From assembly GCA_035622975.1 (NCBI GenBank), contig DASPUH010000040.1, positions 1 through 52,810 on the forward strand: DNA of 52,810 nucleotides, given 5' to 3'. Made by a program: the position numbers and the translations under genes. This DNA comes from Candidatus Sulfotelmatobacter sp. (GTDB lineage: Bacteria; Chloroflexota; Limnocylindria; Limnocylindrales; CSP1-4). Below are positions 28,394 through 41,936 of this stretch, piece by piece. Positions within the stretch are counted from its first letter, which is position 1, and each line of letters begins with the position of its first letter. The notes under the pieces are model-generated. The model searched no databases. It saw only the letters and a program-made list of their open reading frames with translations, and was not told the origin of the DNA.

Positions 28394-29809
28394 TCAGCGC
28401 GGCACAGCGCGCCCGGCGAGACTCACCCCGCGCGGCGCATCCTCGGCTCGCAGGGGTGACACGCCGACGCCCAGGTACGTCACCCCTGGTCGGGGCGGCT
28501 GGCCGCGCAGCACGTTGCGGCCGTCATAGACGACGGCCAGGTCGGGCAGCCAGGCCGGGTCCAACTCCAGGAACCGCGGATCGGCGGTCTGCAGGATGAC
28601 CGCCCGGGCCGGCGACGGCGTGCCCCACGCCCACGGGGTCACGCCCAGCCGGGTCAGCTCGGCCGCCGAGAGCAGCGGATCGTAGGCCGCCACCGATGCG
28701 CCGTGGAACCGGAGCCGCTCGATGAGCGGCATGGCCCGCGTGTAGGCGAGCTCCTTCACGCCCTCGCGGTAGGTGAGCCCCAGGACCAGCACGGGCACGT
28801 CCTCCAGCGAGCCGAGCTCACGCTGCACCTCGCCGACCGCGACACCCACCTGGCCGTCGTTGACCCGGCGAGCGAGCTCAGGGATCTGCAGCTCGGGCGC
28901 GCGGCTGATGAAGAAGTGCGGGTAGACCGGGATGCAGTGGCCACCCACCCCGATGCCGGGCTGGTGGATGTGCGAGAAGGGCTGGCTGTTGGCGCCGCGG
29001 ATGGCCTCGAGGACATCCACGCCGACGCGCTCGGCGTACCGGGCGAACTCGTTGGCGAGTGCGATGTTGACGTCGCGATAGGTCGTCTCGGCGAGCTTGG
29101 CGAACTCCGCCGCCTCGGCCGTCTTGAGGTCCCAGACAGGAGCCGGCAGGACGCTGCGGTAGAACGCGAGGGCACGGGCCGTGCTTGGCGGGTCGATGCC
29201 GCCGACGAGCTTGGGATAGGTCGCCAGGTCGTGGAAGATGCGCCCGCTGAAGACCCGCTCGGGGCTGAAGGCCAGCAGGAAGCCCGCCTCGCCGTCGCCG
29301 GCGGTGAGGCCGCTGCCGCGTTCCAGGGCCGGTCCGAAGCGGCGCCGGGTATCGCCCACGGGCAAGGTCGTCTCGTAGATCACGAGCGTGCCGGGCTGTA
29401 GGCCGCGCGCCATCGCGTCGGTGGCCGGGTCGATCATGCGGTAGTCGGGCAGCTGCTCGTCCGACAGCATGAGCGGCACGATCATGACGACCACGTCGGC
29501 CTGCGCCGCCGCCTCGGCGTGGGACAGGGTGGCCTCGAAACGCCCCGCGGCATAGGCCGCGGCGATGCGCTCGGCCAGCCCCGGCTCCTCGGCGAAGTGG
29601 ATCCGTCCGGCATTCAGCGTGGCCACGACTTCCGGCAGCACGTCCACGCCGATGACGTGCCAGCCCGCCTCGGCGTACTGCGCCGCGAGCGGCAGCCCGA
29701 TCTTGCCCATGCCTACGACGGCGACGGTGCCGGCCGTGTCGGGCGCGCCGCGCCACGGCTTGACGCGTTGCGCGAGCCGATCTTCCCAGGCCGTCGGGTC
29801 GGAGACCAT
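28394..29809 (-). CDS. UDP-N-acetyl-hexosamine 6-dehydrogenase (WbpA/WecC-like nucleotide-sugar dehydrogenase)
   Basis: Start set at ATG 29809 (ATGA overlap with the upstream stop). NAD motif VAVVGMGKIGLPLAAQYAEAG and the catalytic-Cys region GIGVGGHCIPVYP are present. Confidence 0.85.
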   Translation of the reverse strand: MVSDPTAWEDRLAQRVKPWRGAPDTAGTVAVVGMGKIGLPLAAQYAEAGWHVIGVDVLPEVVATLNAGRIHFAEEPGLAERIAAAYAAGRFEATLSHAEAAAQADVVVMIVPLMLSDEQLPDYRMIDPATDAMARGLQPGTLVIYETTLPVGDTRRRFGPALERGSGLTAGDGEAGFLLAFSPERVFSGRIFHDLATYPKLVGGIDPPSTARALAFYRSVLPAPVWDLKTAEAAEFAKLAETTYRDVNIALANEFARYAERVGVDVLEAIRGANSQPFSHIHQPGIGVGGHCIPVYPHFFISRAPELQIPELARRVNDGQVGVAVGEVQRELGSLEDVPVLVLGLTYREGVKELAYTRAMPLIERLRFHGASVAAYDPLLSAAELTRLGVTPWAWGTPSPARAVILQTADPRFLELDPAWLPDLAVVYDGRNVLRGQPPRPGVTYLGVGVSPLRAEDAPRGVSLAGRAVPR

Positions 29810-30831
29810 CAGGGCACCTCCAGGGGCACGATGTCGATCGGGCGGTGCTCCGTCGCCGAGCGCAGCAGGGCGTTCGCCAAAGCGACCGCCCACAGGCCGT
29901 CGGCGCCGCTGATGCCGGCCGGGGCGCCGCCACGTACGGCGTCGAAGAACGCGTCCAGCTCGCCGCGGAGCGGTTCGGCCGGCTGGACGGGGATGGCGGC
30001 GGTCTGACCGGCGAAGGTCGGTGCATACCCGTCCAGGTACTCGGGAGCCAGCTCCTGCGCCCCGCGGGTGAAGGTCAGGGTCTGGCTGAGGTAGTCGGCC
30101 CGGAACATCCCTTCCTGGCCCAGGACGGTCACGTGGCGCTGCTTCTCGGGCGTCAGCCAGTTGACATCCAGCTGGCCAAGGGCGCCGCCGGGGAAGGCCA
30201 GCAGGCCGTAGAGGAGGTCCTCGTGGGCGGTATGGACGTGCTGGGTCGATTCGGCGTAGGCGCGCACCGGACGCTCACCCGCCAGATGGCAGATGACATC
30301 GACATCATGGGTCGCCAGGTCGACCGTCACGCCGACGTCCCGGATGCGCTCAGGGAGCGGCCCGCCGCGCACCGTCTTGATGCTGTAGATGCGTGACAGG
30401 GCCCCGTCGGCCAGCCGCCGGCCCAACTCCCGCACCGCGGGGTTGAAGCGCTCGATGTGACCGACCTGGAGGATCACGCCCCGGTCGTCAGCGGCATGCA
30501 CGATGTCGCGCGCCTCGTCGACCGTGCCCGCCAGGGGCTTCTCCATGAGGACCGCCGCGCCGCGGTCGATGGCCGCCAGGGCCACGCTGCGGTGGAGGGT
30601 CGTGGGCACCGCCACGATCACCGCGTCCAGGCGCTCCTCCGCCAGCATCACGAGCGGATCGTCGAAGGCCCTGACATCGGGCACGAGCGACAGCGCGTGC
30701 TGCTGGGCGATGGGCGCCGGGTCGGCCACCGCCACGAGCGTCACGTCATCGCGGCCGGCCAGATTACGCAGGTGGTTGCGGCCCATCGTGCCCAGCCCGG
30801 CCAGGCCGACGCGCAGGCGGGCGGGGCTCAT
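29809..30831 (-). CDS. Gfo/Idh/MocA oxidoreductase (WbpB-like 3-dehydrogenase)
   Basis: 340 aa. LRVGLAGLGTMGRNHLRNL Rossmann N-terminus and EKPLA motif. Both ends overlap neighbouring genes by 4 nt. Confidence 0.85.
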   Translation of the reverse strand: MSPARLRVGLAGLGTMGRNHLRNLAGRDDVTLVAVADPAPIAQQHALSLVPDVRAFDDPLVMLAEERLDAVIVAVPTTLHRSVALAAIDRGAAVLMEKPLAGTVDEARDIVHAADDRGVILQVGHIERFNPAVRELGRRLADGALSRIYSIKTVRGGPLPERIRDVGVTVDLATHDVDVICHLAGERPVRAYAESTQHVHTAHEDLLYGLLAFPGGALGQLDVNWLTPEKQRHVTVLGQEGMFRADYLSQTLTFTRGAQELAPEYLDGYAPTFAGQTAAIPVQPAEPLRGELDAFFDAVRGGAPAGISGADGLWAVALANALLRSATEHRPIDIVPLEVP

Positions 30832-31931
30832 GCGGCGGTCGTCGCCCCGACCGGCGTCGCCACCTCGCGGACGGCCGCGATGACCTGGTCCAGCTCCTCG
30901 TCGGTCAGGTTCGGACGCACCGGGATGGAAAGGACCTCTGCGCTGAGCCGATCGGTGACCGGCAGGTGCAGATCGGCGGCCCCTGGCATGAACGCCTGCA
31001 GGTAGGCCTGGCGGTGGGTCGGCACGGGGTAGTAGATGAGGGTGCCCACGCCCCGCTCGGCGAGGCCGTCGATGACCAGCTGGCGCTCGCCAGGGAAGCG
31101 CATCGTGTACTGGTGCCAGACGTGCTCGCGGCCCGTGGGCACGGCCGGCGTGAGGTAGCCGGTGAGGCCGGCGGTGAGGCGGGCCGCGTTGCGCCGGCGG
31201 CGCTCGGTCCGCTCATCGAGCCGCGGCAGCTGGGCCAGCCCGAGGGCCGCAGCGAGGTCGGTGGGCTTGAAGTTGGTGCCCAGGCTGTCGTGGTAGTAGC
31301 GGACGCGCATGCCGTGGTTACGGTAGAGGCGGATGCGGTCAGCCAGGGCGTCGTCGTCGGTCGTGGCGAAGCCGCCCTCGCCGGTCATCAGGTTCTTCGT
31401 CGCGTAGAGGCTGAACATGGCCGGCCCGAAGGTGCCGGCCTTGCGGCCGGCGTACGTGGCGCCATGGGCCTGGGCGGCATCCTCGATGATCGTCAGGCCA
31501 TGCCGGGCGGCGATGGCTTCGAGGGGCCCCATGTCGGCCATCAGGCCGTAGAGGTGGACCGGCATGATGGCCCGCGTGCGCGGCGTCACGGCAGCCTCCA
31601 CCTGGTCGGGGTCCATGGCGAAGTCGTCCGCTCGGACGTCGACGAAGACGGGCCGTGCGCCGACCTGGAGGATGACACTGGCCGTGGCGTTGAAGGTGAA
31701 GCTGACGGTGATGACCTCGTCACCGGGCCCGATGCCGAGACCTCGCAGCACGGCCTCCTGCGCCACCGTGCCGTTGGCCATCAGGATCGCGTGGCGCACG
31801 CCGCAGTAGGCTGCCCACGCCTCCTCGAACTCCTGGGTCTTGCGGCCCATGGCGAGCAGACCGGAGCGGAGCACGGCCAGGACCGCCTCCTCCTCGGCGG
31901 GTCCGATATCGGGCCGCGAGAGGGGGATCAT
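30828..31931 (-). CDS. DegT/DnrJ/EryC1/StrS aminotransferase (WbpE-like)
   Basis: Start at ATG 31931 (MIPLSRPDIGPAEEEAVLAVLRSGLLAMG...), with ATGA overlap with the upstream stop. PLP-lysine region FSLYATKNLMTGEGG is present. The 170-aa Arg-rich extension in the track is spurious. Confidence 0.9.
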   Translation of the reverse strand: MIPLSRPDIGPAEEEAVLAVLRSGLLAMGRKTQEFEEAWAAYCGVRHAILMANGTVAQEAVLRGLGIGPGDEVITVSFTFNATASVILQVGARPVFVDVRADDFAMDPDQVEAAVTPRTRAIMPVHLYGLMADMGPLEAIAARHGLTIIEDAAQAHGATYAGRKAGTFGPAMFSLYATKNLMTGEGGFATTDDDALADRIRLYRNHGMRVRYYHDSLGTNFKPTDLAAALGLAQLPRLDERTERRRRNAARLTAGLTGYLTPAVPTGREHVWHQYTMRFPGERQLVIDGLAERGVGTLIYYPVPTHRQAYLQAFMPGAADLHLPVTDRLSAEVLSIPVRPNLTDEELDQVIAAVREVATPVGATTAA

Positions 31932-32545
31932 GCGGCCACCCCGGCGAGCGCGGTGCAGCGGGCCGCGGTGATGCGGTAGCGGCGACCGTCCCGGCCGCAG
32001 GTCGCCTCCCCTTCGTAGGCAGCGGCGACCGGCTCGCCGGCGGCGAGCAGGCGCCGTCCGCACGCGCACACCCAGCCCAGCAGCCGGGCCGGGTTGCCGG
32101 CCACGAGGGCGTGGTCGGGCACGTCGCGCGTGACGACGGCACCGGCGCCGACGGTGGCGAAGCGGCCCACGTCCGTGCCGGCGACGACGACGGCGCCCGC
32201 CCCGACGGAGCTGCCGTAGCGTAGATGGATCTGGTCGACGGTCCAGTCGTCGGCCGTGGCGAGCGCCCCCTCGGCGGTGATCGCGCGCGGGTAGCGGTCG
32301 TTGGTCAGGATCGCCCCGGGACCGATGAAGACGCCGTCCTCGATGGTCACCCCGTGATACACCAGCGCCGCGTTCTGGATCTTGACGCGGTCCCCGATCC
32401 GGACGCCGGTGTCGATGTAGGCGTCCTTGCCGACCACGCAATCGTCCCCCACCACGGCGCCCTCACGCACCTGGGCCCGGTTCCAGATGCTCGTGCGCTG
32501 GCCGATCCGCGCGTCGGCGGCCACGTCGGCGGAGGGATGGATCAC
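31928..32545 (-). CDS. left-handed beta-helix N-acetyltransferase (WbpD-like)
   Basis: Start at GTG 32545 (VIHPSADVAADARIGQRTSIWN...). Hexapeptide repeats, KIQNAALVY-GVTIEDGVFIGPGAILTND, and the C-terminal GNPARLLGWVCACG typical of WbpD/WlbB-type enzymes. Confidence 0.85.
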   Translation of the reverse strand: MIHPSADVAADARIGQRTSIWNRAQVREGAVVGDDCVVGKDAYIDTGVRIGDRVKIQNAALVYHGVTIEDGVFIGPGAILTNDRYPRAITAEGALATADDWTVDQIHLRYGSSVGAGAVVVAGTDVGRFATVGAGAVVTRDVPDHALVAGNPARLLGWVCACGRRLLAAGEPVAAAYEGEATCGRDGRRYRITAARCTALAGVAA

Positions 32546-32624
32546 GAGTGGGCTGCGTCTCCGATGGGCGCTGCGCGACCTGTGCCAGCTGCCGGCTGGA
32601 GTGTACCCGAAGTCGTGAGGCGGC

Positions 32625-33053
32625 CTAGCCGCGACGCCTGCCCCGGCCGCCCAGCAGGAGGCGCACGAGACCGAGACCCAGGCCCAGGGCGAGGGCCCCG
32701 CGCCAGTCGACGATCGGCCGTACGTCGCCGTGGACCTCGCCGGCGACCACCACGAGCGCCAGCGAACCGGCGCTGATCTCCACCGCATCGCCCATCACCG
32801 CGCCGACGGCGGACTGCTCGAGGCGCACGTGGGCACTCGACTCGACGAGCGCCACGGCGCCCTGGCGGACCGCCAGGTCCTGGACCTGCGCGTGGGCGAT
32901 GGCCCCCTGGCTGACCTCGGCGCGGTCGGCCGTCAGGCTGGCCAGGCTGGCCTGGCCGACGATCGCCGTACCGGTCGCGGCCGGCGCCGCGGCCGGGCGG
33001 GCGCGGCGCTTCCGCGGTGCGGTGAGTCCATCGGGCGTGGGCGTGTCGGCCAT
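32625..33053 (-). CDS. small repeat-containing, C-terminally membrane-anchored protein, unknown function
   Basis: 142 aa. Strong SD AGGAGGAGG (33061-33069) 7 nt before ATG 33053. About five imperfect 15-residue repeats rich in A/V/Q/G, then a TM (GALALGLGLGLVRLLLGG) and a basic tail. Confidence 0.6.
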   Translation of the reverse strand: MADTPTPDGLTAPRKRRARPAAAPAATGTAIVGQASLASLTADRAEVSQGAIAHAQVQDLAVRQGAVALVESSAHVRLEQSAVGAVMGDAVEISAGSLALVVVAGEVHGDVRPIVDWRGALALGLGLGLVRLLLGGRGRRRG

Positions 33054-33104: not shown

Positions 33105-34367
33105 ATGCCGCGCAACGTGACCAGCAGCGCGCCATCCGAGCCCCGCCGGCGACCTCCGACCATCGCCCTGCTCGCGCTCGGCGCGGCCATCGTGATCGTG
33201 GGTGGTGCGGTGCTGGCGTCGGGGGCGCTGGGCCCGCGAGCCGCCAGTCCGACGCCCACCCTCGCGGCGGCCGTCTCGCCGTCACCGCCGTCGGCGTCCG
33301 GCTCGGCCACGCCCACCACCGCGCCCTCGGCGACCGCCACACCGGTGCCGACACCCAGCCCGACGCCGACGCCGCCGCCCGTCGCCGCCACCACCGACGG
33401 CGTCTGGCTGCCAGCCAGCGAGGCGGCGCTGGCCACCCGCCATCCCGTCGCCGTGATGATCGATGACCAGGCCCTGGCGCGCCCGCAGTCCGGCCTGGCC
33501 AGCGCAAACATCGTGTGGCAAGCCCCAGCAGAGGGCGGCATCCCGCGCTACATGGCCATCTTCCAGACGACCGAAGCACCGGCGGTGGGTCCCGTCCGCA
33601 GCAGCCGGCTCTACTTCGTGGCCTGGGCCAGCGAGTGGAAGGCGACGTACGCGCATGCCGGCGGCGCCCCGAACGCGCTGGCCTACCTCCAGGCCAACAA
33701 CGGCAAGACCATCTACAACGCCGACGAGTTCCGCTGGGGGCCCTACTTCTGGCGCATCACGACCCGCTTCGCCCCGCACAACCTGTACACCTCGACCGCC
33801 AGCCTGTTCAAGCTCGAGGCGCGCCTCAAGGCCACGGCGCCGCAGACGACTTCGCCCTACACCTTCGAGGACGACGCCCTGCCGGCCTTGCGCCCAGTGA
33901 GCGGCTCGATCGTCGTGCCCTACCTCGCCAACCGCATCAGCTACACGTACGACCCAGCCACCAACCGTTACCAGCGCGCCGTCACCGGCGCCAAGGTCCA
34001 GGTGGACGCGGGCACGAACCAGCCGGTCGCGCCGGCCAACGTGGTGGTCCTGTTCATGCCGGTCGGGCCGCTCGCCAACGCGCCAGGCGCGTCCACCAAC
34101 GCCGAGAAGCACCGCCTGGAGGTCGGCTACGTGGGCCACGGCAGCGCCCTCGTGTTCAACGACGGACAGGTCGTCAAGGCCGTCTGGACCAAGGCCAGCA
34201 TGACCGCTCCGACGCTGCTGACATACGCCAGCGGGCCGCAGGCGGGCCAGCCGGTGCCCCTCGTGCGCGGCCAGATCTTCTTCCAGGTGGTGGCCACCGG
34301 CACGACCATCGCCTACCACATCGGCAGCCTCCCGCCTCCCCCGCTGCCCGGGCCGGGACGGGACTGA
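33105..34367 (+). CDS. DUF3048 domain protein (YerB-like), secreted/membrane-anchored
   Basis: 420 aa. N-terminal TM, Pro/Thr/Ser linker, then HPVAVMIDDQALARPQSGLASANIVWQAPAEGGIPRYMAIFQ...SSRLYFVAWASEW, which matches the DUF3048 pattern as I recall it. Confidence 0.8.
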   Translation: MPRNVTSSAPSEPRRRPPTIALLALGAAIVIVGGAVLASGALGPRAASPTPTLAAAVSPSPPSASGSATPTTAPSATATPVPTPSPTPTPPPVAATTDGVWLPASEAALATRHPVAVMIDDQALARPQSGLASANIVWQAPAEGGIPRYMAIFQTTEAPAVGPVRSSRLYFVAWASEWKATYAHAGGAPNALAYLQANNGKTIYNADEFRWGPYFWRITTRFAPHNLYTSTASLFKLEARLKATAPQTTSPYTFEDDALPALRPVSGSIVVPYLANRISYTYDPATNRYQRAVTGAKVQVDAGTNQPVAPANVVVLFMPVGPLANAPGASTNAEKHRLEVGYVGHGSALVFNDGQVVKAVWTKASMTAPTLLTYASGPQAGQPVPLVRGQIFFQVVATGTTIAYHIGSLPPPPLPGPGRD

Positions 34368-34371
34368 GCGG

Positions 34372-35682
34372 TCAGGAGCCGCTCGTGGTTCCCCGGATGG
34401 GGGCCGCGGCCGCGGCCGCGGCATAGACCGCCCGCGTCTCCTCCGCCACCTCCGCCCACCCGCGCCGCGACCCGTGCGCCCGCGTCTGCGCGGCACGGGC
34501 GATGGGACCCCGTACGCGCTCGTCGGCCCACATGACGCGCAGCGCGGCCGCGAGCCGGTCGGGGTCCCGAGCCTCGACGACGATGCCCGCCTTGCCCACC
34601 AGCTCCGGCAACGGGCCGACGCGCGAGGCGACCACCGGCGTGCCGACGGCCAGCGCCTCCTGGACCACCAGCCCGGTGCCCTCGCTGACAGCCGGGAACA
34701 CCACCGCGCGCGCGCCGCCCTCCAGGGTCGCCAGTTCGGCCGGCCCGAGGCGCGGGACCTGGCGGACGAGGTCCCCGACCCCATGCCGTGCGGCGGCGCG
34801 GGCCAGGCCGACCGAATCCGACTCATCCGATCCGAGAGCACCGGCCAGGACCAAGACCGGCGGCCACGCCTCGGTGCCCCGGATCGGCGCCTCCTCCCGC
34901 AGGGCGCCGAGGGCCCGGAAGAGCGTCCCCAGGTCCTTGCGCGCGTCGTAGCGACCGGCGAAGACGAGGTATCGCTCGGGCAGGGCCAGGCGGGCGCGCA
35001 GGGCCTGGACCCGATCGGAGCTCGCGGCCAGCGGCTGGAAGGCCGGGTCGGGGGCCAGCGGCACCACGGCGATCCGTTCGGCCGGGATCCGCAGCAGGCG
35101 TCGCGCGCTCTCAGCCGTGGCCCGCGAGCAGACGATCAGGCGGACCGCGTCATGCAGCACGCGGGCCCGCAGCCGGTGGCCGAACCGCGCGGCCGGGCTG
35201 GCGGCGTACACCTCGGGCAGCTCCCAGGGCGCCAGATCGAGCAGGGTGGCCACGAGCGGCAGGCCGGACGCCAGCGGCGCGGCGCCCCCGGCGGTGTGGT
35301 AGATCGAGCCGGCGGCTCCGCTCTCCGTGGCCCGCCAGGTCGTGCCCACCTCCGCCCCGCGGAGCAGGAACGAGTCCAGCGTCAGGCCCGCCGAGCGGAA
35401 CACCCGCGCCGTGGGCGGCACGCGTCGGCGGCCGGCCATGGGCAACCCGGCGGCTTCAAGAGCATCGGACGGGTCGTCACGCAGCGTGCGCAGCACGGCC
35501 ACGAACGACTCGTGCTCGAGCGGCCGGGCCGCGAAGGCGCGCGTGAGGCGGTCCAGGTAGGCCGCCGTGATCGGCGTGCGCTCCGGCTCCTGGAGCGGGC
35601 GCAGGTCGATGACGACGCGCGCGCCGGCGGGACGCCCTGGGCTTGCCGCGCCCGCGGCCGATGCAGCTGGGGGCCTGGGCAC
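34372..35682 (-). CDS. GT4 glycosyltransferase
   Basis: 436 aa. YLVFAGRYDARKDLGTLFRAL and VFPAVSEGTGLVVQEALAVGTPVVASRVGPLPE (E-x7-E). Start may lie slightly downstream of 35682. Confidence 0.8.
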   Translation of the reverse strand: MPRPPAASAAGAASPGRPAGARVVIDLRPLQEPERTPITAAYLDRLTRAFAARPLEHESFVAVLRTLRDDPSDALEAAGLPMAGRRRVPPTARVFRSAGLTLDSFLLRGAEVGTTWRATESGAAGSIYHTAGGAAPLASGLPLVATLLDLAPWELPEVYAASPAARFGHRLRARVLHDAVRLIVCSRATAESARRLLRIPAERIAVVPLAPDPAFQPLAASSDRVQALRARLALPERYLVFAGRYDARKDLGTLFRALGALREEAPIRGTEAWPPVLVLAGALGSDESDSVGLARAAARHGVGDLVRQVPRLGPAELATLEGGARAVVFPAVSEGTGLVVQEALAVGTPVVASRVGPLPELVGKAGIVVEARDPDRLAAALRVMWADERVRGPIARAAQTRAHGSRRGWAEVAEETRAVYAAAAAAAPIRGTTSGS

Positions 35683-35691
35683 GCCGGCGGC

Positions 35692-36480
35692 TCAGCCGGG
35701 GCCGACGTCGGCCCGGCCACGGGCGCGGGCTGCCGCGAGGGCCCCCCGGCCGCGCAGCTCGTCCCACCGCAGGCGCAGGACGACGATGAACGCCTCGCGC
35801 ACGATGCCGCGCGACATCTTGCTGACACCCACCCGGCGGTCGGAGAAGACGATCGGCACCTCGACGATGCGGGCCCCCAGGCGGCTCGCAAGGTAGGTCA
35901 TCTCGATCTGGAAGACGTAGCCGCCGGCGTGGATGCCCTCCCGCGGCAGGCCCGCCAGGGTGGCCGCACGCCAGGCCTTGAAGCCCCCCGTCAGGTCGTG
36001 CTGGTGCAGCGTCAGGACCGCCCGCGCGAAGAGCGAACCGCCACGCGAGATGACGCGCCGGGCGACCCCCCAGTCGCGCACGCCGCCGCCCTTGACATAG
36101 CGCGAGCCGATGACCAGGTCGGCGCGATCGAGCGCCCCCACGAGCGCTGGCAGGTAGGCCGGGTCGTGCGACCAGTCGGCGTCCATCTGCACGACCCGGT
36201 CGGCACCAGCGGCGAGCGCGACCCCGAAGCCCTCCAGGTAGGCCGGCCCCAGCCCTGCCTTGGCGCGCCGATGGCAGACCGAGACCTGCGGGTCCACCGC
36301 GGCCAGGCCGTCCGCGATGGCCCCCGTGCCGTCGGGCGAATCATCATCGACCACCAGCAGGTGTGCGCCGGGCAGCCGCTCCAGGATCGCCGCGGCGATC
36401 GCAGGGAGGTTCTGCGCCTCGTCGTAGGTCGGCACGACGACCCACGTGCCGGCGTACGGGTGGGGCACCGGTTCGGGCAT
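35692..36480 (-). CDS. GT2 polyprenyl-phosphate glycosyltransferase (Ppm1/Dpm1-like)
   Basis: Start at ATG 36480 (MPEPVPHPYAGTWVVVPTYDEAQNLP). VVDDDSPDGT, QMDADWSHDP and IGSRY motifs are typical of polyprenol-monophosphomannose synthase-type enzymes. The transferred sugar cannot be read from the sequence. Confidence 0.85.
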   Translation of the reverse strand: MPEPVPHPYAGTWVVVPTYDEAQNLPAIAAAILERLPGAHLLVVDDDSPDGTGAIADGLAAVDPQVSVCHRRAKAGLGPAYLEGFGVALAAGADRVVQMDADWSHDPAYLPALVGALDRADLVIGSRYVKGGGVRDWGVARRVISRGGSLFARAVLTLHQHDLTGGFKAWRAATLAGLPREGIHAGGYVFQIEMTYLASRLGARIVEVPIVFSDRRVGVSKMSRGIVREAFIVVLRLRWDELRGRGALAAARARGRADVGPG

Positions 36481-36544: not shown

Positions 36545-39500
36545 TCAGCCGCCGAGGGCGGCCTGCAGCACGGTGAGGGTCCCGGCCGACACGGCCGCGG
36601 CGCCGCCCAGGGCCACGACCCGCACGGCGTCCCGGGCGAGGGCGGCCTGGACCACCGCCGCGGGCACCGCCCCAGGCGGCACGAGCAGCAGCGGCTGCCC
36701 CAGGGCGGCCGCACCAAGGGCGTCGGCGAAGGTGAGGCCGCTGGCCACGTAGACGGCAGCCGTGGAGCCGAAGCTGGCGTCGACGACGGCCGCCGCGGTG
36801 GCGTAGCGATCCGCCCCGGCCAGCCGCGTCACGGGGCCGTGCGTGAGCGACGCGAGCGCGGTCGTCACGGCCGATGAGACCGAGGCGCGGCCGCCGACCA
36901 CCACGATGCGGGCCGGCTGGAGGCGTTGCAGTTCGGCGACGGTCGCCGGTGGCAGGCCTTCAGGGGCGGTCAGCAGCAGCGGACCGTGCTGGTGTGCGGC
37001 GGCGGCAGCGGCAGCCACGCCATCGGCGAACGACAGCCCGTCGGCCACGTAAACGACCGGCACCCCTGGCATGAAGACGGCAGCCGATGCGGCGGCGGCC
37101 GTGGCGTAGCGGTCGGCGCCGCTGATCCGGCTGACCCCACCCGTGGCGTACCCGACCAGGGCCTTCGCCACGGCCGCCCCGACCGACGCGGTGCCCCCGA
37201 CGATGACGATGCGACCCGGCCGCAGGCGGGCCAGTTCGGCGGCCGTGGCGGACGGGATCGCGCCGGGCTGGACGAGCAGCAGCGGGGCGTTCAGCGCGGC
37301 GGCGACGGGTGCGGCGCTGAGGCCGTCGGCGAAGCCAGCACCCGAGGCGATCACGACGGCCGGCACGCCCGGACGGGCGAAGGCCACGCTGATGGCCGCG
37401 GCCGTGCCGTAGCGGTCCTGCCCGGCCAGGCGCTCGGTCCCGACATGGTGCAAGGCCACCCCGTACAGGCTCAGCTGGGCCGGCCCGACGGCCGCGGTGG
37501 TGGGCGCATGGTGCAGGCCGTTGGTGTCACGGCCGACCAGCTGCAGGATGTACGTGCCACTGGCCAGCACGGTCGAGCCCACCCGGCCGTTCCACACGAA
37601 CGACTGGGGCCCGGCGCGACGGGCCCCGATCGACACGCTGCCGGCGAGGCTGCCGTCGGGGCGGAAGACATCGAGGGCCATCGAGCCCAGGGCGGCCGTA
37701 TCCGTCCAATCGATCTCCAGCGTATCGCCGTGGCCGTCGCCGTTGGGGCTGAACGAGCGGAGGGCCGCCCCGCCAGGGCCCAGGCTCGACCCCCCGGCGC
37801 CGGCGAACGAGAAGTCGGTGATGAGCGCGGCGACCCGCGTGGCGTTCGGCGCCTGGATGGGGCGGAGATACGTCGTCGAGCCGACCGCGCCGGCGATCCA
37901 CACGCCGGCCTCCTGGTCGGCGGTGGGCCCCCAGGTCGTCACAGGCAGGGCCACCTGGAACCACTGCAGGCCGCCGGCCGAGACCGGGCCGGCCATGATG
38001 GCCACGTCGGTGCCGGCCGCGGCCTGGAGGACGACCGGTGCTCCGGTGCCCGGCGCGGCCCGCCCGTTGACGCCGTCGGCCACGACCTGCGCGAACCCGC
38101 CAGCTTGCAGCGTCGGCGTCGGGCTGTACACGCTGGCGACATTGAAGGGGCTGACGTTGCCGCGCCCGTCGGCGGCCCGCACGCGAAACGCATATCCGTG
38201 ACCCTGCGCGCCCTGGAAGGTGGCGCTGGACGCCGTCACGTGGGTCAGCCAGGGCTTCCACGGGCCGCCGTCGAGGGAGACCTGCACGTCGAACCAGGCG
38301 ATGCCGCTGCGGTCATCGCTGCCGCGCCAGGCGACCGTGAAGCCGAGGTCGCCGGTCGTCGCGGGCAGGGCCACCAGACCCGCCACCGGCGCGGTCGTGT
38401 CGGCGATGAACTTGGCCCGCAGTTCCGCGGCCAGCTCAGGGCGCGTGCCTTCGTAGCCCAGGGCCCAGATACCAGCGCCGCGCAGGCCCTTGCGGTTGAT
38501 CATGTCGTACCGCTGGCCCAGGCTGACCGCGTCGTCGTAGTACAGCTCTCGGGTCACCTTGGCACAACCGCTGCATGGCGCGAGCGAGTAGGCCGTCCAG
38601 GAGCTCTGCTCCAGACCGTCGTAGTGGCGCCCGTGCGCGGCCGCCAGGCCGACCGCCTGCGCGTAGGTCGCGGCGACCGAGTAGCCGTTGTGGCTGGAAG
38701 GGGTCAGGGTCGCAGCGTTCGGGCCGCTGCCGCTCGTGCTCCAGGCACGGCCGTAGTAGGGCACCCCGAGGATGATCTTGCCGGGGGTGGTCAGGGCCAG
38801 ATACGCATCGACGGTGTCGGTCAGGTCGTAGGTCGGCCCGCCAAGTGGGTCGATGGATCCGGCGATGGGACTGCTCGCGCCGCGGTAGTCATAGCCCATG
38901 ACCAACACCGCGTCGGCGGCACCCGGCGCGGTGAGGCCGGGGATGTCGTAGCTGTCAGGGCGACCCGTGGCATCGAAGGTGAGCTCGTAGCCGGCACGGC
39001 GGGCGTCGAGGTCCGCACGCAGCTGACGGACCAGCGCCGTGTAGTTCGCCGCCTGGCCTGGCGGGATGGGCTCGAAGTCCAGGTTGACCCCATCCACGCC
39101 GCGGTCGTGGACGGCCGTGGCGATCTCCGCCGCGAGGCGCGCCCGGAGCGTCGGGCTGGACAGCAAGGTGATCGTGTCGGCGTTCTGCCCGCTGGTCCAG
39201 GCGAACCGTTCCACCGTCAGGACCACCCGGGTCCCATGGCGGTGAGCGGCATCGATCACGGCCGTCATGGCCCGGCTGGTCCAGCCGGCCCAGCCGACGC
39301 TCGGGGAACCGTCGGGGTCGCGCGTCTCCAGGTGGCCGTCCGGACCGGCGCCCACGGCGAAGTAGGCGATCGTGGAGAGGGTGGTGTAGTCCAGACGCAG
39401 GCTGCCACTGTCCAAGGTCCAGTAGGGCAGGAAGCCCAGGACCTCACGCCGCAGGCCGGCCGTCGTCGAGCGCATCGCCGAAGACGTGGTGGCCAGCGAC

Positions 39501-39919
39501 CCGGTCGCCACGGCTTCCACCGCCGCAGGCGCGGCGGCGGCGCCGGTCGTCGCCGGGCTGGCCGCCTCCAGCGGGATGGTGGCCGGTCCGCCGGGCGTGA
39601 ACGCCGGGCGGTCGGCCGCGTGGGCCATCGCATCCAGGTACTCCGTCGAGGGCCCCGTGTCGGGCGGGTCGGCCTGGGTCAAGACGGGCGCGTCGGTGCT
39701 CATGCCCGCGTCACCGCCCAGTACGGCAGGGGCTGGCGGAGCCTGCTCGGCGGACTCGGTCCGCGTCGACCGGGCACTCGGAGCGACGGCGGACGATGTC
39801 ACGGCGCCCAGCGGTGCGGCCACCGGGACGAGGGACGCGGCCGATGACGTGGCAAGGGCGAGGGCCACCAGCAGGCCCGTTCCGACCCGGAGGCGGCGGT
39901 GCGTCAGCAGGTTGGCCAT
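36545..39919 (-). CDS. secreted multidomain GH18-like hydrolase with FN3-like, SH3b-like, FlgD-Ig-like modules and three C-terminal CWB2 repeats
   Basis: Start at ATG 39919, 6 nt after AGGAGG (MANLLTHRRLRVGTGLLVALALA, a signal peptide). GH18 block LGFLPYWTLD...VDGVNLDFEPIP...VMGYDY. FN3-like FTVAWRGSDDRSGIAWFDVQVSLDGGPW. SH3b-like VNGRAAPGTGAPVVLQAAAGTDVAIM...LQWFQV. FlgD-Ig-like FSPNGDGHGDTLEIDW...GTYILQL. Ends in 3x CWB2. Confidence 0.85.
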   Translation of the reverse strand: MANLLTHRRLRVGTGLLVALALATSSAASLVPVAAPLGAVTSSAVAPSARSTRTESAEQAPPAPAVLGGDAGMSTDAPVLTQADPPDTGPSTEYLDAMAHAADRPAFTPGGPATIPLEAASPATTGAAAAPAAVEAVATGSLATTSSAMRSTTAGLRREVLGFLPYWTLDSGSLRLDYTTLSTIAYFAVGAGPDGHLETRDPDGSPSVGWAGWTSRAMTAVIDAAHRHGTRVVLTVERFAWTSGQNADTITLLSSPTLRARLAAEIATAVHDRGVDGVNLDFEPIPPGQAANYTALVRQLRADLDARRAGYELTFDATGRPDSYDIPGLTAPGAADAVLVMGYDYRGASSPIAGSIDPLGGPTYDLTDTVDAYLALTTPGKIILGVPYYGRAWSTSGSGPNAATLTPSSHNGYSVAATYAQAVGLAAAHGRHYDGLEQSSWTAYSLAPCSGCAKVTRELYYDDAVSLGQRYDMINRKGLRGAGIWALGYEGTRPELAAELRAKFIADTTAPVAGLVALPATTGDLGFTVAWRGSDDRSGIAWFDVQVSLDGGPWKPWLTHVTASSATFQGAQGHGYAFRVRAADGRGNVSPFNVASVYSPTPTLQAGGFAQVVADGVNGRAAPGTGAPVVLQAAAGTDVAIMAGPVSAGGLQWFQVALPVTTWGPTADQEAGVWIAGAVGSTTYLRPIQAPNATRVAALITDFSFAGAGGSSLGPGGAALRSFSPNGDGHGDTLEIDWTDTAALGSMALDVFRPDGSLAGSVSIGARRAGPQSFVWNGRVGSTVLASGTYILQLVGRDTNGLHHAPTTAAVGPAQLSLYGVALHHVGTERLAGQDRYGTAAAISVAFARPGVPAVVIASGAGFADGLSAAPVAAALNAPLLLVQPGAIPSATAAELARLRPGRIVIVGGTASVGAAVAKALVGYATGGVSRISGADRYATAAAASAAVFMPGVPVVYVADGLSFADGVAAAAAAAHQHGPLLLTAPEGLPPATVAELQRLQPARIVVVGGRASVSSAVTTALASLTHGPVTRLAGADRYATAAAVVDASFGSTAAVYVASGLTFADALGAAALGQPLLLVPPGAVPAAVVQAALARDAVRVVALGGAAAVSAGTLTVLQAALGG
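36548..37423 (-). repeat. three tandem CWB2 (cell wall binding repeat 2) modules, protein-level repeat
   Basis: Three units of about 95-100 aa, each with G(Q/A)DRY(G/A)TAAA ... (S/D)G..FADGL/ALxAA ... PLLL(V/T) ... P..T..EL.RL.P.RI.(I/V)VGG..(S/A)V. Confidence 0.75.
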
Positions 39920-40046: not shown

Positions 40047-41936
40047 TCAGGTCGCGCTTGGCGCGGCGCCTCTGACGGCGAGCATCACCGAGTAGCTGAT
40101 CGCCCCCGGACCGCCCAGGAACACGATGCGGCCGGGGTTCAGACGCGTCACCTCGGCCAGCACGACCGAGGCGACCGTGCGCCCCTGCGCCAGGACGAGT
40201 GGCTGGCCGAGCGCGGCGCCCACGAGAGCGTCGGGGAAGTTCGCGCCCGACGCGACATACAGCGTGCTGACGTCGGGGCTTCCGGGGTAGGTGTCCTCCG
40301 AGATGGCGACGGACGTGGCATAGCGGTCGCTGCCCGCCAGGCGCGTCGGGGTGACGCCCGCGGCCGCCCCGAGCGCGTCCTTCACCGCGTCGCTGACGCT
40401 GGCCGTGCCGCCCAGGACCTTGATGGCCTTGGGAGCCAGGGCCTTCACCGCCTGCAGGGTGGCGTCGGGTAGGCTGGTCGGGTCGACGAGGAGGACGGGC
40501 GCCCCGACGTGGCCCGCCGCGGCGGCTCCCGCGAGAGCGTCCGGGAAGTTGAGGCCGTCGGCCACGTAGAGGACGTTGACGGGGCCGCTGAAGAACGTGG
40601 TGGCGATGGCGCCGGCCGTGCCATAGCGGTCACTGCCGGCGACGCGGCGGACGTTGGTGGAGGGGTTGCTGACCATGGCGTCGAGCTGCTGCTCGACGGC
40701 CGTCGTGACACTGGCGGTCCCGCCCAGGATCACGATCTGCTGTGGTTTCAGGCGGTCCAGCTCGGCGATGGTCGACGGAGGCAGGCTGTCGGGAGCCGTG
40801 ATGACGAGCGGTGCGTGCTCCTTGGCAGCGGCGGCCGCCCCGGCCAGCGCGTCGGGGAACAAGGCGCCGCTGGCCACGAATACGAGCGGGGTCGGGCCGG
40901 CGGGGAAGCTCTGGTCGTCGATGGCCTCCGCGGTGCCATAGCGGTCGGCCCCGGCCAGGCGATCGGGGTCGGGCGCGGGCGAGCCCCCGTCCAGGACCTC
41001 GTCACCAGTGAGCAGGAGGTTGCCCACCACGGAGCGGTAGTAGTTGTCGCTGCTCGCGGTGGGCGGTCCGCCGGGGTCCATGTGGACGTCGTAGAGGGGT
41101 GACCGCGAGGAGCCGAAGCGGATGGCGTACGTGCCCAGGTAGCCGTCGGACATGAAGATCTGGTCGATCGTCTGGGCGGGGTCGTCGAAGATGGCATCGA
41201 TGACGCCCGTGACGCCCTGCATGCCGTAGGCGAAGACCGCGCCGGCGCCGGCCTGCAGGAACCCCGCACCGTAGTTGTCGACCCGTTGCTGAGCCACGCT
41301 CTGGGTGGGCTCGGAGGGGATGGTCGACTCGTTGTCGCCGCTGGCATAGCACAGGTGGTTCAGCAGGACGACGGCGTTCGGATGCGGGTGGAGCGACGCG
41401 GCGATGGGGCCTTCGCCGCAGTAGTTCATGCCGCCGCCACTGGCGCACGGCGTGCCCGAGGTGTAGTCGAGGACGAAGCCATCCACCCGGTCGGGCATGA
41501 GGTAACCGGGCGGGTACGGATTGGGGTAGCCGTTGCCATGGCCCATATAGGCCACGATGGTCGCCGGCTGACCCCCGTCCGCCCCGTTGACGTATTTGAC
41601 GACGTTCTGCCACGTGGCCGGCAGGATCGTCGGCAGGCTGGAGAGCGTGCCGGTCGAGCCGGGCTTGGCGATCTTGTTGTAGCTCGTGGCGGTGTACAGG
41701 CGGATGACATCCATGCCGTGGCTGGCGGCATCCGCGGCCACCGACTCGGCGTCTGAAACGTACCCACCTGTCTGGCCGGCGACCGGTCCCACGATGATCA
41801 CGGCGCGCGGTGCGGCTGGAGCCCCGTCCGCCCGCGCCGGCGACGCCGCAGCGCCCGACCAGCCGGTCGCCACGAGCGCGAGGAGCGCCGCGGCGATGAG
41901 GGCCAGCCGCGTGCGGCGGACCGTGGGATCGGCCAA
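40047..41936 (-). CDS. secreted protein: N-terminal candidate caspase-fold (clan CD-like) cysteine peptidase domain plus three CWB2 repeats
   Basis: TTG start at 41936, 7 nt after GGAGG. Signal peptide (RLALIAAALLALVATGWSGAAASPARA). N-domain has VIIVGP...IVAYMGHGNG...VVLLNHLCYASG (His-Gly and Cys after beta-strand-like segments). Ends in 3x CWB2. The peptidase assignment is inference. Confidence 0.8.
   Translation of the reverse strand: MADPTVRRTRLALIAAALLALVATGWSGAAASPARADGAPAAPRAVIIVGPVAGQTGGYVSDAESVAADAASHGMDVIRLYTATSYNKIAKPGSTGTLSSLPTILPATWQNVVKYVNGADGGQPATIVAYMGHGNGYPNPYPPGYLMPDRVDGFVLDYTSGTPCASGGGMNYCGEGPIAASLHPHPNAVVLLNHLCYASGDNESTIPSEPTQSVAQQRVDNYGAGFLQAGAGAVFAYGMQGVTGVIDAIFDDPAQTIDQIFMSDGYLGTYAIRFGSSRSPLYDVHMDPGGPPTASSDNYYRSVVGNLLLTGDEVLDGGSPAPDPDRLAGADRYGTAEAIDDQSFPAGPTPLVFVASGALFPDALAGAAAAAKEHAPLVITAPDSLPPSTIAELDRLKPQQIVILGGTASVTTAVEQQLDAMVSNPSTNVRRVAGSDRYGTAGAIATTFFSGPVNVLYVADGLNFPDALAGAAAAGHVGAPVLLVDPTSLPDATLQAVKALAPKAIKVLGGTASVSDAVKDALGAAAGVTPTRLAGSDRYATSVAISEDTYPGSPDVSTLYVASGANFPDALVGAALGQPLVLAQGRTVASVVLAEVTRLNPGRIVFLGGPGAISYSVMLAVRGAAPSAT
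40050..40952 (-). repeat. three tandem CWB2 modules, protein-level repeat
   Basis: G(A/S)DRY(G/A)T..AI ... ASG..FPDAL.GAA ... P(L/V)(V/L)L ... LP......(L/V)..L.P..I..LGG..(S/A)(V/I). I estimate about 40% identity to the triplet of the neighbouring gene by eye. Confidence 0.75.

Follow-up and report, generated by a model that had tools for sequence, protein, structure and literature searches.

Among the closest described systems is the S-layer/cwp gene cluster of Clostridioides difficile with its anionic-polymer locus (PMC4973711; Chu et al. 2016, PMC5065235). In that species, the anionic polymer (AP, PSII) is encoded by a locus immediately downstream from the group of genes for CWB2 proteins (Willing et al. 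2015, PMC4973711), and this neighbouring wall polymer is the only experimentally defined CWB2 ligand (PMC4973711). A second relevant system is the WbpA-B-E-D-I (WlbA-D) route of P. aeruginosa and Bordetella, which yields UDP-ManNAc3NAcA for the LPS O-antigen. In Geobacillus stearothermophilus, a wall polymer containing acidic 2,3-diacetamido-2,3-dideoxymannuronic acid anchors the S-layer proteins SbsA and SbsC (PMC4232325). Finally, wall teichoic and teichuronic pathways of the TagGH, TagF and TuaC/TuaD type combine cytoplasmic GT4-type assembly with export by an ABC-2 permease and ATPase, and use uronic-acid or polyol-phosphate building blocks.

The window analysed here, a stretch of 52,810 nucleotides, belongs to an uncultured soil bacterium, Candidatus Limnocylindria (class Limnocylindria, Chloroflexota); an actinobacterial or Firmicute host was ruled out, the assignment coming from the names attached to homologues and related loci. 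The lineage that the earlier note had described only as one of very high G+C is thereby specified. Genes at 28394-41936 were defined by a third-position GC frame plot and translations (Table 1), and the stretch runs from the stop codon of the dehydrogenase gene (28394) to the TTG start codon of the gene for the 629-aa protein (41936). All domains predicted in that note scored above the Pfam gathering cut-off at the coordinates it gave, and its strand assignment agrees with ours, the DUF3048 gene being the single plus-strand member.

Table 1. Coordinates, strands and domain matches of the features in the window.
Feature	Coordinates	Strand	Product	Matches and remarks
Distal set: five GT4-type genes, ABC-2 permease, ABC ATPase	1..8641	mixed or not given		Pfam
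ABC-2 permease	about 2060-2941	+		Pfam
ABC ATPase	2942-3745	+		Pfam
UDP-N-acetyl-hexosamine 6-dehydrogenase (WbpA / UDP-ManNAc-dehydrogenase-like)	28394..29809	-	471 aa	PF03721 1.6e-29, PF00984 2.5e-23, PF03720 2.1e-12
GFO/IDH/MocA NAD-dependent sugar-nucleotide 3-dehydrogenase (WbpB/WlbA/GnnA-like)	29809..30831	-	340 aa	PF01408 1.3e-25, PF22725, PF02894
DegT/DnrJ/EryC1-type PLP sugar aminotransferase (WbpE-like)	30828..31931	-	367 aa	PF01041 1e-118
Left-handed beta-helix N-acetyltransferase (WlbB/WbpD-like)	31928..32545	-	205 aa	PF00132 1.7e-21; GTG start
Small protein	32625..33053	-	142 aa	no family match; basic N-terminus, hydrophobic Arg-rich C-terminus
DUF3048 (YerB-like) protein	33105..34367	+	420 aa	PF11258 4.9e-40, PF17479 2.2e-17
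GT4 glycosyltransferase, conserved core gene	34372..35682	-	436 aa	PF00534 and PF13692 (about 1e-19), PF13439
Dpm1/Ppm1-like GT2, putative polyprenyl-phosphate hexose synthase	35692..36480	-	262 aa	PF00535 5e-23; no membrane segment
Secreted GH18 protein with C-terminal CWB2 triplet	36545..39919	-	1124 aa	PF00704 9.6e-26; PF04122, three stretches, 3.8e-46
 its CWB2 triplet	36548-37432			residues 830-930, 931-1031, 1032-1124
 its GH18 domain	about 38453-39172			motif DGVNLDFE
Secreted N-domain protein with C-terminal CWB2 triplet	40047..41936	-	629 aa	PF04122, three stretches, 5.1e-51
 its CWB2 triplet	40050-40961
 its N-domain	about 40971-41816			invariant His and Cys
Membrane-anchored LysM protein	42008..42967	+		PF01476 3.1e-17; between mreC and secreted-protein genes
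mreC	42970-43926	-		PF04085
mreB	43936-45009	-		PF06723

The diacetamido-sugar genes and the genes for the CWB2-tailed secreted proteins are adjacent, in a layout much like that of C. difficile. As in that species, secreted proteins with enzyme cargo have a C-terminal run of three CWB2 repeats, in which a hydrophobic (P)ILL-type motif is conserved, and their genes immediately adjoin those for the glycosyltransferases and sugar-nucleotide enzymes of an anionic surface glycopolymer. The two systems differ in phylum (Chloroflexota against Bacillota), in sugar (a diacetamido-uronic acid against a hexose/HexNAc-phosphate repeat) and in exporter (ABC-2 against the MviN/Wzx-Wzy route). In addition, the present locus lacks an initiating transferase and an LcpA/B ligase, and its CWB2 domain is a minority, interchangeable tail. 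We consider that the stretch would be one half of an envelope supercluster typical of Candidatus Limnocylindria, adjoining the rod-shape genes mreBC. The best explanation of the whole, with a diacetamido-sugar pathway, an exported acidic polymer and CWB2 docking, is given a probability of roughly one half.

The four sugar-nucleotide genes are translationally coupled. The start of the 6-dehydrogenase gene overlaps the oxidoreductase stop by 1 nt (TGATG), and 4-nt overlaps (ATGA) join the oxidoreductase start to the aminotransferase stop and the aminotransferase start to the acetyltransferase stop; GGAG lies 13 nt 5' of the acetyltransferase GTG start. The acetyltransferase is, by sequence, specifically WlbB/WbpD-like, with WlbB (3mqg, 1.5e-39) as top PDB match well ahead of the runner-up (1.6e-29). 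The 6-dehydrogenase scored 302 bits against TIGR03026 (cut-off 189.8), and its top PDB match was 4r16, an archaeal UDP-ManNAcA dehydrogenase (5.9e-62). For the oxidoreductase, the top NCBIfam model was an archaeal UDP-GlcNAc 3-dehydrogenase (255 bits, under the cut-off of 450), and PDB matches included 7bvj (85 bits) and WlbA 3q2k (79 bits). The PDB search with the aminotransferase was led by 7b0d (263 bits), with WbpE (3nyu, 3nu7) eighth at 223 bits. None of the oxidoreductase, aminotransferase and 6-dehydrogenase reached an equivalog cut-off in the NCBIfam search.

The WbpA/WbpB/WbpE/WbpD route suggested earlier therefore holds for the enzyme families, the start-stop overlaps and the acetyltransferase. 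The order of steps may be Wbp-type or archaeal-type, since the closest curated models of the oxidoreductase and the 6-dehydrogenase (archaeal-type UDP-GlcNAc 3-dehydrogenase and UDP-ManNAc dehydrogenase) were both under cut-off and WbpE was the eighth-ranked PDB match of the aminotransferase. Compared with the Wbp/Wlb systems, the same four families form one coupled operon here, the oxidoreductase and the 6-dehydrogenase resemble their Wbp/Wlb counterparts no more closely than they do archaeal or GnnA-type enzymes using UDP-GlcNAc before C-6 oxidation, and the product would enter a monoderm-type surface polymer. Very probably, the four genes convert UDP-GlcNAc into UDP-2,3-diacetamido-2,3-dideoxy-glucuronic acid through C-3 oxidation, transamination, N-acetylation and C-6 oxidation, in a sequence that is not fixed. 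A 2-epimerase, present in relatives, would yield the mannuronic form; in the window, that gene has been lost from this position.

The pairing of a GT4 with a Ppm1/Dpm1-like transferase, proposed previously, was borne out by Pfam and PDB matches. The GT2 gene stops 9 nt before the GT4 start. Its product has a single PDB match, the Pyrococcus dolichol-phosphate-mannose synthase 5mlz (3.1e-29), and a weak top NCBIfam match to AglJ; it probably makes a polyprenyl-phosphate hexose that serves decoration on the outer side of the membrane. The GT4 has 1480 homologues at E<=1e-20, the named ones being from Limnocylindrales/Chloroflexota, and only weak, MshA-like PDB matches.

Both secreted proteins begin with a hydrophobic, signal-like segment, and an Ig-like region occupies the middle of the GH18 protein. 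Judged by sequence, their C-terminal repeats are genuine CWB2. The earlier note had named a lack of PF04122 matches as grounds for rejection; both triplets match that family, and their repeats align to Cwp6, Cwp8 and SlpA. PDB matches comprised Cwp6 (2.1e-26), Cwp8 (6.3e-22) and the GH18 entry 4wiw (1.5e-15) for the GH18 protein, and Cwp6 (9.3e-27) for the 629-aa protein. Every repeat retains the motif P-[LV]-[LV]-[LIV], the counterpart of the essential ILL motif of CWB2 in C. difficile (PMC4973711). The triplets differ in charge, with a pI of 4.7 in the 629-aa protein and 9.6 in the GH18 protein. Of the two "large secreted enzymes" first proposed, both have their triplets and one its GH18 domain; "enzyme" would be a presumptive label for the 629-aa protein, because its N-domain matched no Pfam family. 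The N-domain alignment shows invariant motifs G-H-G-N-G and C-Y, an AlphaFold model has a pLDDT of 84.7, and the top fold matches were legumains, at a non-significant E=0.01. By analogy, a GH18 glycosidase and a His/Cys N-domain protein, possibly a clan-CD peptidase, may be secreted and retained in the wall by non-covalent binding of their triplets to a wall glycopolymer, as with CWB2 and PSII in C. difficile. The acidic polymer encoded nearby would be the most economical candidate ligand, a suggestion that we hold with low to moderate confidence.

Comparison with about 170 related loci, a check that the earlier note had proposed, revealed a neighbourhood conserved in many relatives. The core beside mreBC consists of the secreted N-domain protein, which follows mreC in nearly all related loci, the Dpm1-like GT2, likewise present in nearly all of them, and the GT4. 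mreBC forms the conserved left border, with adjacency in L001, L004, L008, L010-L013, L040, L090, L092 and others, and the LysM gene keeps its position in many loci. A variable cassette slot adjoins the core and holds, in the window, the genes for DUF3048, the small protein and the diacetamido-uronic acid. Of 49 full-length species-representative loci, 19 have the four-gene module with its gene order unchanged, mostly followed by Epimerase_2. Other loci carry a TagF-like glycerophosphotransferase (L064), NeuB plus a cytidylyltransferase (L017) or a UDP-sugar dehydrogenase plus GT4s (L026) in this slot, each with an ABC transporter. All three cassette types yield anionic polymers or sugars.

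The distal set of the window is separated from the cassette by about 20 kb. Four relatives (L094, L095, L103, L114) have homologues of its permease and ATPase (47-77% identity), and of the glycosyltransferase encoded at 1-939, immediately next to the 2-epimerase and module, in the order ABC permease - ATPase - GT4s - epimerase - DH6 - GFO - DegT - AcT - small protein - DUF3048, with no intervening genes. In nine or ten other loci, homologues of the same three genes are found within 2-6 kb of the core GT4. This contiguity, together with TagF-like and NeuB genes in the same slot, supports an exported acidic glycopolymer, which we propose with moderate confidence from gene context. At the cytoplasmic membrane face, the GT4s would incorporate the acidic sugar into a glycan linked to polyprenol, and a Wzm/Wzt- or TagGH-like ABC-2 transporter, with genes now at 1-8641 in this lineage, would export it as a teichuronic-acid-like surface or wall polymer; each step is suggested at the same level of confidence. 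The window encodes no 2-epimerase, priming polyprenyl-phosphate sugar-1-phosphate transferase, Wzx/Wzy (flippase/polymerase) or LCP ligase, and the scanned flanks of relatives likewise contain no priming transferase, LCP ligase or Wzx/Wzy. The acidic secondary wall polymer suggested in the earlier note fits the gene context as regards an exported acidic glycopolymer; a priming transferase and an LCP ligase are missing from the window. The TagF-like gene in some Limnocylindria extends the likeness to teichoic and teichuronic pathways; TuaC and TuaD models matched weakly (NCBIfam), and no TagO/TagA-type linkage-unit genes were found. The likeness to G. stearothermophilus concerns the polymer, in which a diacetamido-uronic acid gives negative charge to a non-covalent surface-protein anchor; the Geobacillus proteins attach through a domain other than CWB2 or SLH, and the cargo there is an S-layer lattice protein instead of hydrolases.

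The comparative evidence on docking of the triplets to this polymer is mixed. CWB2-tailed versions of the locus fall into six lineage groups (the window clade, L040, L008, L009, L090 and L092/L093), all with at least the WlbB-like acetyltransferase of the module nearby, and none of the 30 module-less full loci has one. These counts, along with the ligand defined in C. difficile, speak for CWB2 binding to the diacetamido-sugar polymer, which is plausible. They speak against a somewhat unlikely alternative in which the genes merely share an envelope-biogenesis neighbourhood near mreBC; the glycan would still be made and exported, and CWB2, as an interchangeable surface-retention module, would bind peptidoglycan or another wall polymer encoded elsewhere. 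That alternative gains from the tail types, since orthologous proteins in 14 of the 19 module-bearing species-representative loci have Ig-like tails (FlgD_ig, CHU_C or Big_13), so that the polymer does not require CWB2 partners. On the N-domain tree, the tail type switched at least four times. All CWB2 cases lie in its module-rich half, and phylogeny confounds the association, which is not significant by lineage (p about 0.12 once the window's clade counts once). Furthermore, CWB2 proteins with other cargo, namely subtilase or CAP, occur at other positions and at an unrelated locus (L091); the acidic triplet of the 629-aa protein is also at odds with a simple electrostatic attraction to a polymer that is itself acidic.

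Less probable still is a role of the sugar and the GT2 in glycosylating secreted or surface proteins, or a membrane glycolipid/lipoglycan, as in archaeal S-layer N-glycans, with no peptidoglycan-linked polymer. The secreted proteins encoded alongside, and the DUF3048 and LysM proteins through their Pro/Thr-rich linkers, would be candidate substrates. The archaeal affinities of both dehydrogenases and the GT2, the missing ligase and priming transferase, and a PMT_2 (GT-C) gene that L113 and L114 carry right next to their ABC permease are in keeping with such a role. However, no oligosaccharyltransferase or PMT homologue was found in the window or in loci other than these two, the module is tightly linked to several GT4s and to an ABC-2 exporter, and a TagF-like teichoic-acid polymerase fills the slot in other lineages; the last two observations point to a polymer and not to a short glycan on proteins. 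That unrelated genes are chance neighbours in one genome, without functional meaning, is very improbable. The supercluster is rearranged in the window's lineage, so strict contiguity is not needed, but the conservation data already contradict this reading: dozens of species-level lineages keep the gene order, some with a GT4 identity of only about 50%, the four genes are coupled, and DUF3048 is distributed in step with the cassette (p = 6e-9).

In the preferred reading of an exported acidic polymer with CWB2 docking, the DUF3048 and small proteins, which always accompany the cassette, would probably work outside the membrane, on the polymer once it is exported. The DUF3048 protein, correctly recognised before, has an N-terminal membrane anchor (a hydrophobic segment near residue 20), a Pro/Thr/Ser-rich linker and YerB (2psb, 6.9e-31) as its only PDB match. 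The 32 loci with DUF3048 all have additional genes between the GT4 and what follows it; DUF3048 was missing from 20/20 loci where the GT4 abuts a PPIase and from 11 other insert-bearing loci. The gene for the "small repeat protein" is present as described; its loose ~13-residue V/A/G-rich repeats are discernible by eye only, and it matched nothing in Pfam or NCBIfam. Most related loci have a weak homologue (27-82% identity) at the corresponding place.

The G+C content of the window ranges from 69 to 77%, and genes were therefore called by third-position GC periodicity combined with inspection of the translations. Ten genes were identified in the 13.5-kb locus, 9 of them on the minus strand, and their coordinates are collected in the table below. 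All the Pfam families that the earlier note had proposed for these genes were matched above curated cut-offs, including three C-terminal PF04122 repeats in each of the two large proteins, and the translational coupling described for the four sugar-nucleotide genes (the module: a 6-dehydrogenase, a GFO oxidoreductase, a DegT aminotransferase and a WlbB-like acetyltransferase) is visible as start-to-stop overlaps of 1, 4 and 4 nt. A scan of the window for promoters and terminators returned 0 promoters and 1 terminator-like site, equal to chance expectation and uninformative at such G+C. The 142-aa protein has loose V/A/G-rich repeats of ~13 residues and an Arg-rich hydrophobic tail; weak homologues (27–82% identity) are found beside DUF3048 in most loci, with the position kept. 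Elsewhere in the window, three long ORFs with coding-like GC3 gave no Pfam match, and a 617-aa protein combines a C-terminal polysaccharide deacetylase domain with an N-terminal part of ~450 residues that matched no family. No homologue of the latter was found among the related loci searched.

Features of the window and of related loci (L handles) in relatives' genomes and metagenomes
Feature	Location	Strand	Basis or remark
Five GT4-type genes, ABC-2 permease and ATPase	1-8641		first gene runs off the left edge
ABC-2 permease and ATPase	about 2060-3745
Long ORF	11783-13327	+	no Pfam match
Long ORF	18550-19164	-	no Pfam match
617-aa deacetylase protein	22467-24320	-
Interval of ~90 bp	28305-28394		site of the 2-epimerase gene in L013
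Ten-gene locus	28394-41936		9 of 10 genes on minus strand
Four sugar-nucleotide genes (module)	28394-32545	-	Pfam and translations
142-aa protein	32625-33053	-	no family match
DUF3048 protein	33105-34367	+
Variable slot content	28394-34367		compared with slots in relatives
GT4	34372-35682	-
Dpm1-like GT2	35692-36480	-
1124-aa GH18 protein	36545-39919	-
CWB2 triplet, GH18 protein	36548-37432
629-aa protein	40047-41936	-
CWB2 triplet, 629-aa protein	40050-40961
N-domain, 629-aa protein	40971-41816	-	~300 residues
Long ORF	48903-50216	-	no Pfam match
Cargo orthologues with other tails	L001:3714-9105; L003:2602-9084
UDP-sugar 2-epimerase	L013:17283-18368
TagF-like glycerophosphotransferase	L064:17135-20605		slot content
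NeuB and cytidylyltransferase pair	L017:17136-19232		slot content
UDP-sugar dehydrogenase with GT4 genes	L026:15888-20867		slot content
CWB2 protein cluster	L092:10001-20917; L093:10001-21220		beside mreBC
777-aa PMT_2 (GT-C) protein	L114:6706-9039		also in L113

The identity of the C-terminal repeats as PF04122 was borne out in both large proteins, which scored 155.9 and 171.6 bits against a cut-off of 24.9 and aligned with the solved trimers of Cwp6, Cwp8 and SlpA. Against Cwp6 (5j72), E-values of 9.3e-27 for the 629-aa protein and 2.1e-26 for the GH18 protein were obtained, followed by Cwp8 (5j6q; 7.2e-20 and 6.3e-22, respectively) and SlpA (7acy/7acx; ~1e-18 to 1e-12). The six repeats carry the motifs PLVI, PVLL, PLVL, PLLL, PLLL and PLLL, and this P-[LV]-[LV]-[LIV] pattern corresponds to the ILL motif that is essential for CWB2 anchoring in C. 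difficile (PMC4973711). The triplets also carry an R-x-x-G-x-D-R-Y motif with a conserved Arg. Additionally, both proteins begin with a basic and then hydrophobic segment followed by an Ala-rich site, as judged by a hydropathy heuristic only, and NCBI's automatic annotation names their homologues "cell wall-binding repeat-containing protein".

The cargo portions of the two proteins differ. In the GH18 protein, PF00704 was matched above its cut-off and the motif DGVNLDFE, set against the canonical DxxDxDxE, keeps the D-x-E pair and replaces the middle Asp with Asn. The N-terminal part of the 629-aa protein (N-domain) contains the invariant motifs G-H-G-N-G-x-P-x-P-Y and C-Y-x-x-G, and His106-Gly107 and Cys169 are invariant across the 40 N-domain sequences aligned. 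In the AlphaFold model (pLDDT 84.7), His106-Gly107 and Cys169 each follow a strand. A Foldseek search with this model returned nothing at E <= 0.001; since the top matches, to legumains, were non-significant (E = 0.01, TM about 0.35), a clan CD cysteine peptidase of the legumain/caspase type is put forward only as a lead. This secreted His/Cys family follows mreC in nearly every Limnocylindria lineage compared and is a lead in its own right.

Homologues of the central GT4 bear the names Candidatus Limnocylindrales or Chloroflexi bacterium CSP1-4, and the best 80 species-representative loci belong nearly all to Chloroflexota/Limnocylindria-type MAGs. Judging by these relatives, the "very high-G+C lineage" of the earlier note is Limnocylindria, an uncultured class of Chloroflexota, and not an actinobacterium. 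The radC-mreB-mreC order had pointed to something like Thermaerobacter, and an actinobacterial or high-G+C Firmicute origin was rejected on the strength of these homologues and loci. Soil and fresh water commonly harbour Limnocylindria, for which our literature search found no cultured representative (the name is a Candidatus one) and no published envelope biochemistry. A survey of 282 Limnocylindria genomes gave 2.39 Mbp as the median size, with 68.9% G+C (PMC10608941).

Related loci were gathered from context look-ups, a GT4-anchored scan of species representatives and an ABC-ATPase-anchored metagenome scan. The conserved gene order is radC-mreB-mreC-(LysM)-[secreted N-domain protein]-(GH18 protein)-GT2-GT4. 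The housekeeping genes PPIase-MazG-RNase PH directly follow this core in one large clade (20 loci); outside this clade, a variable cassette lies between GT4 and PPIase-MazG-RNase PH. The commonest cassette is that of the window: the four-gene module together with DUF3048 and the small protein. A 2-epimerase, further GT4s and an ABC-2 permease with its ATPase usually come next. Conservation in relatives, which the earlier note proposed to test, was found for this gene neighbourhood in many of them.

The slot after GT2-GT4 is hypervariable in Limnocylindria. In place of the window's cassette, a TagF-like glycerophosphotransferase, a NeuB and cytidylyltransferase pair, and a UDP-sugar dehydrogenase with GT4 genes were observed in L064, L017 and L026, respectively, each accompanied by the same ABC-2 transporter, and all three cassettes are predicted to make anionic sugars or polymers. 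This hypervariable slot represents a lead that stands by itself. DUF3048 was found in 32 related loci, every one of which has an insert after GT4, whether a glycopolymer cassette or another, and was missing from 20 of the 20 loci in which GT4 abuts PPIase as well as from 11 other insert-bearing loci. Such restriction to insert-bearing loci (p = 6e-9) points to a putative role of DUF3048 (YerB family) in glycopolymer processing outside the membrane. For a widespread family of unknown function, this co-variation with glycopolymer cassettes is likewise a separate lead.

The WbpA/WbpB/WbpE/WbpD route assigned to the module in the earlier note was confirmed in part. The acetyltransferase is, by its matches, specifically WlbB/WbpD-like, with WlbB (3mqg) as best PDB match at 1.5e-39 over the full length and the next match at 1.6e-29. 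The other three enzymes fall in the right families and remained below equivalog cut-offs, and no NCBIfam equivalog model reached its own cut-off for any of the four. For the 6-dehydrogenase, TIGR03026 was matched above cut-off and PDB 4r16 at 5.9e-62, while the closest equivalog models, UDP-ManNAc dehydrogenases, scored below their cut-offs. The best curated model for the GFO/IDH/MocA oxidoreductase was an archaeal UDP-GlcNAc 3-dehydrogenase (255 bits vs a cut-off of 450); among structures it scored 85 bits with 7bvj, probably a GnnA-type UDP-GlcNAc 3-dehydrogenase and not counted as evidence here, and 79 bits with WlbA (3q2k), inositol dehydrogenases scoring similarly. The aminotransferase matched PF01041 at 1e-118, with WbpE as its eighth PDB match (223 bits vs 263 for the top match). 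As a set, the genes point strongly to UDP-2,3-diacetamido-2,3-dideoxy-hexuronic acid as the predicted product. Oxidation at C-6 comes first in the Wbp order and last in the archaeal order, and the module may fit either.

The WbpI-type 2-epimerase (PF02350) needed for the manno form was not found among the window ORFs scanned, so the predicted product is the gluco form, barring an epimerase gene outside the window. In L001, L003, L008, L013, L040 and many other loci, a PF02350 gene directly follows the dehydrogenase. In L013, whose GT4 is 93% identical to that of the window, the 2-epimerase lies between the 6-dehydrogenase and PPIase. Because the window, L010, L011 and L012 hold ~90 bp where this close relative keeps the gene, the comparison suggests that the epimerase was lost recently and cleanly in these four loci.

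With regard to export, the ABC-2 permease and ATPase near the left edge of the window lie ~25 kb from the module. These ABC and GT4 genes are homologues of genes that adjoin the module directly in relatives (L094, L095, L103 and L114), which indicates that a supercluster was split in the window's lineage; ~20 kb of housekeeping genes now separate its two halves. The polymer half of the proposal in the earlier note gains comparative support from this contiguity of module, GT4 and ABC-2 genes in relatives and from the other anionic cassettes in the slot, and a contribution of the locus to an exported acidic surface glycopolymer is well supported by these comparisons. Neither an initiating polyprenyl-phosphate sugar-1-phosphate transferase nor an LCP ligase (PF03816) was found among the ORFs scanned in the window and in relatives; the ligase gene may lie in another part of the genome, and the polymer's attachment to the wall is therefore inferred. 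The Dpm1-like GT2 belongs to PF00535, and its only PDB match was DPMS (5mlz, 3.1e-29). No GT-C partner for it was detected in the window; in the flanks of relatives, a PMT_2 gene was observed in one lineage (L113 and L114), directly upstream of the ABC permease. It is a possible partner of the GT2, using the polyprenyl-phosphate sugar that this enzyme would supply.

CWB2-tailed versions of the secreted proteins were found in the window's clade, L040, L008, L009, L090 and L092/L093. Elsewhere, the orthologous cargo proteins end in FlgD_ig, CHU_C, Big_13 or fn3 Ig-like repeats. Cargo orthologues in L001 and L003 are 37–60% identical to those of the window N-terminally, despite their different tails. 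In the N-domain tree, CWB2-tailed forms occur in at least four separate groups interspersed with Ig-tailed forms, so that the tail has switched at least four times. All the CWB2-tailed forms fall within one half of the tree, the one in which the module is frequent. A very recent swap confined to the window's clade was considered for the CWB2 tails and rejected, as CWB2-tailed orthologues at 33–40% identity occupy the same slot.

The two CWB2 proteins lie within 4–9 kb of the module, an arrangement that recurs in six lineage groups. The association was tabulated over the 49 species-representative loci in which GT4 has 6 kb or more on each side, the module being scored as present with at least 3 of the 4 sugar-nucleotide genes and as absent with 0 or 1. 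CWB2 tails were observed in 5 loci with the module and in 0 without it, and loci lacking CWB2 numbered 14 and 30, respectively (Fisher p = 0.006 raw). A strict dependency of CWB2 on the module was nevertheless rejected, given that a single clade accounts for 4 of the 5 positives and that p is about 0.12 by lineage. Among complete chromosomes, OY969885.1 lacks the module at this locus and OY970306.1 carries it there without CWB2. The pattern that CWB2 occurs only near the diacetamido module thus appears without exception in six lineage groups and is not statistically secure. In the opposite direction, the polymer clearly would need no CWB2 partners, as the gene contents indicate. Furthermore, the calculated pI values of the two triplets, 4.7 in the 629-aa protein vs 9.6 in the GH18 protein, show a sharp difference in charge, one that charge-based binding of both to a shared acidic polymer would not predict.

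The closest known parallel comes from C. difficile, where the cwp cluster adjoins an anionic-polymer locus and CWB2 binds PSII (PMC4973711, PMC5065235). In Geobacillus stearothermophilus, a wall polymer containing the acidic sugar 2,3-diacetamido-2,3-dideoxymannuronic acid anchors S-layer proteins (PMC4232325), but through a domain other than CWB2. The window locus differs from both in phylum, sugar chemistry, the ABC-2 exporter and its interchangeable anchor modules, and is best filed as a new, putative member of the known arrangement of polymer genes beside anchored-protein genes. According to database surveys, CWB2 occurs in Firmicutes and also in high-G+C Micrococcales (PMC5817068); our literature search found no experimental CWB2 work outside Firmicutes and none on Chloroflexota. 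Docking of the CWB2 triplets onto the locally encoded acidic glycan, as the earlier note had envisaged, is plausible, with a probability that we place at roughly 0.3–0.4. A wider reading holds that wall enzymes acting beside the MreBC elongation machinery are docked through CWB2 on a diacetamido-uronic, teichuronic-acid-like polymer, and that lineages swap polymer chemistry (diacetamido-uronic, TagF-type polyol phosphate or nonulosonic acid) together with the retention module that suits it, either CWB2 or Ig-like tails; we consider this rather unlikely.

If the wider reading were true, CWB2-polymer anchoring would extend beyond Bacillota and CWB2 would gain a second defined ligand class. If CWB2 does bind the diacetamido-uronic polymer, C. 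difficile would cease to be the only organism with a defined CWB2 ligand, and the side-by-side placement of anchor and polymer genes would prove to be an ancient or a recurrent feature of monoderm-type bacteria. The locus offers a concrete, testable model of the Limnocylindria surface, with an ABC-exported acidic glycopolymer and wall-held hydrolases encoded beside mreBC. A specialist would not be greatly surprised by it; yet it opens an experimental route into the envelope of a class that is widespread and uncultured.

Other cargo was also observed in CWB2 proteins. The divergent lineage of L092 and L093 has four CWB2 proteins clustered beside mreBC, which resembles a miniature C. difficile cwp cluster. 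Beside the N-domain and GH18 proteins, these are an S8 subtilase with Big_5 and a ~472-aa CWB2 protein with a weak CAP match in L092; next come genes for a WlbB-like acetyltransferase and a 2-epimerase. Another subtilase-CWB2 protein is encoded at the unrelated locus L091. Finally, two near-identical relatives, L005 and L007 (contigs of the ENA samples ERZ25039562 and ERZ25039537), have many fragmented genes, for example split GH18-CWB2 and DUF3048 genes and fused or truncated module genes; this fragmentation looks like assembly frameshift error rather than real pseudogenes.
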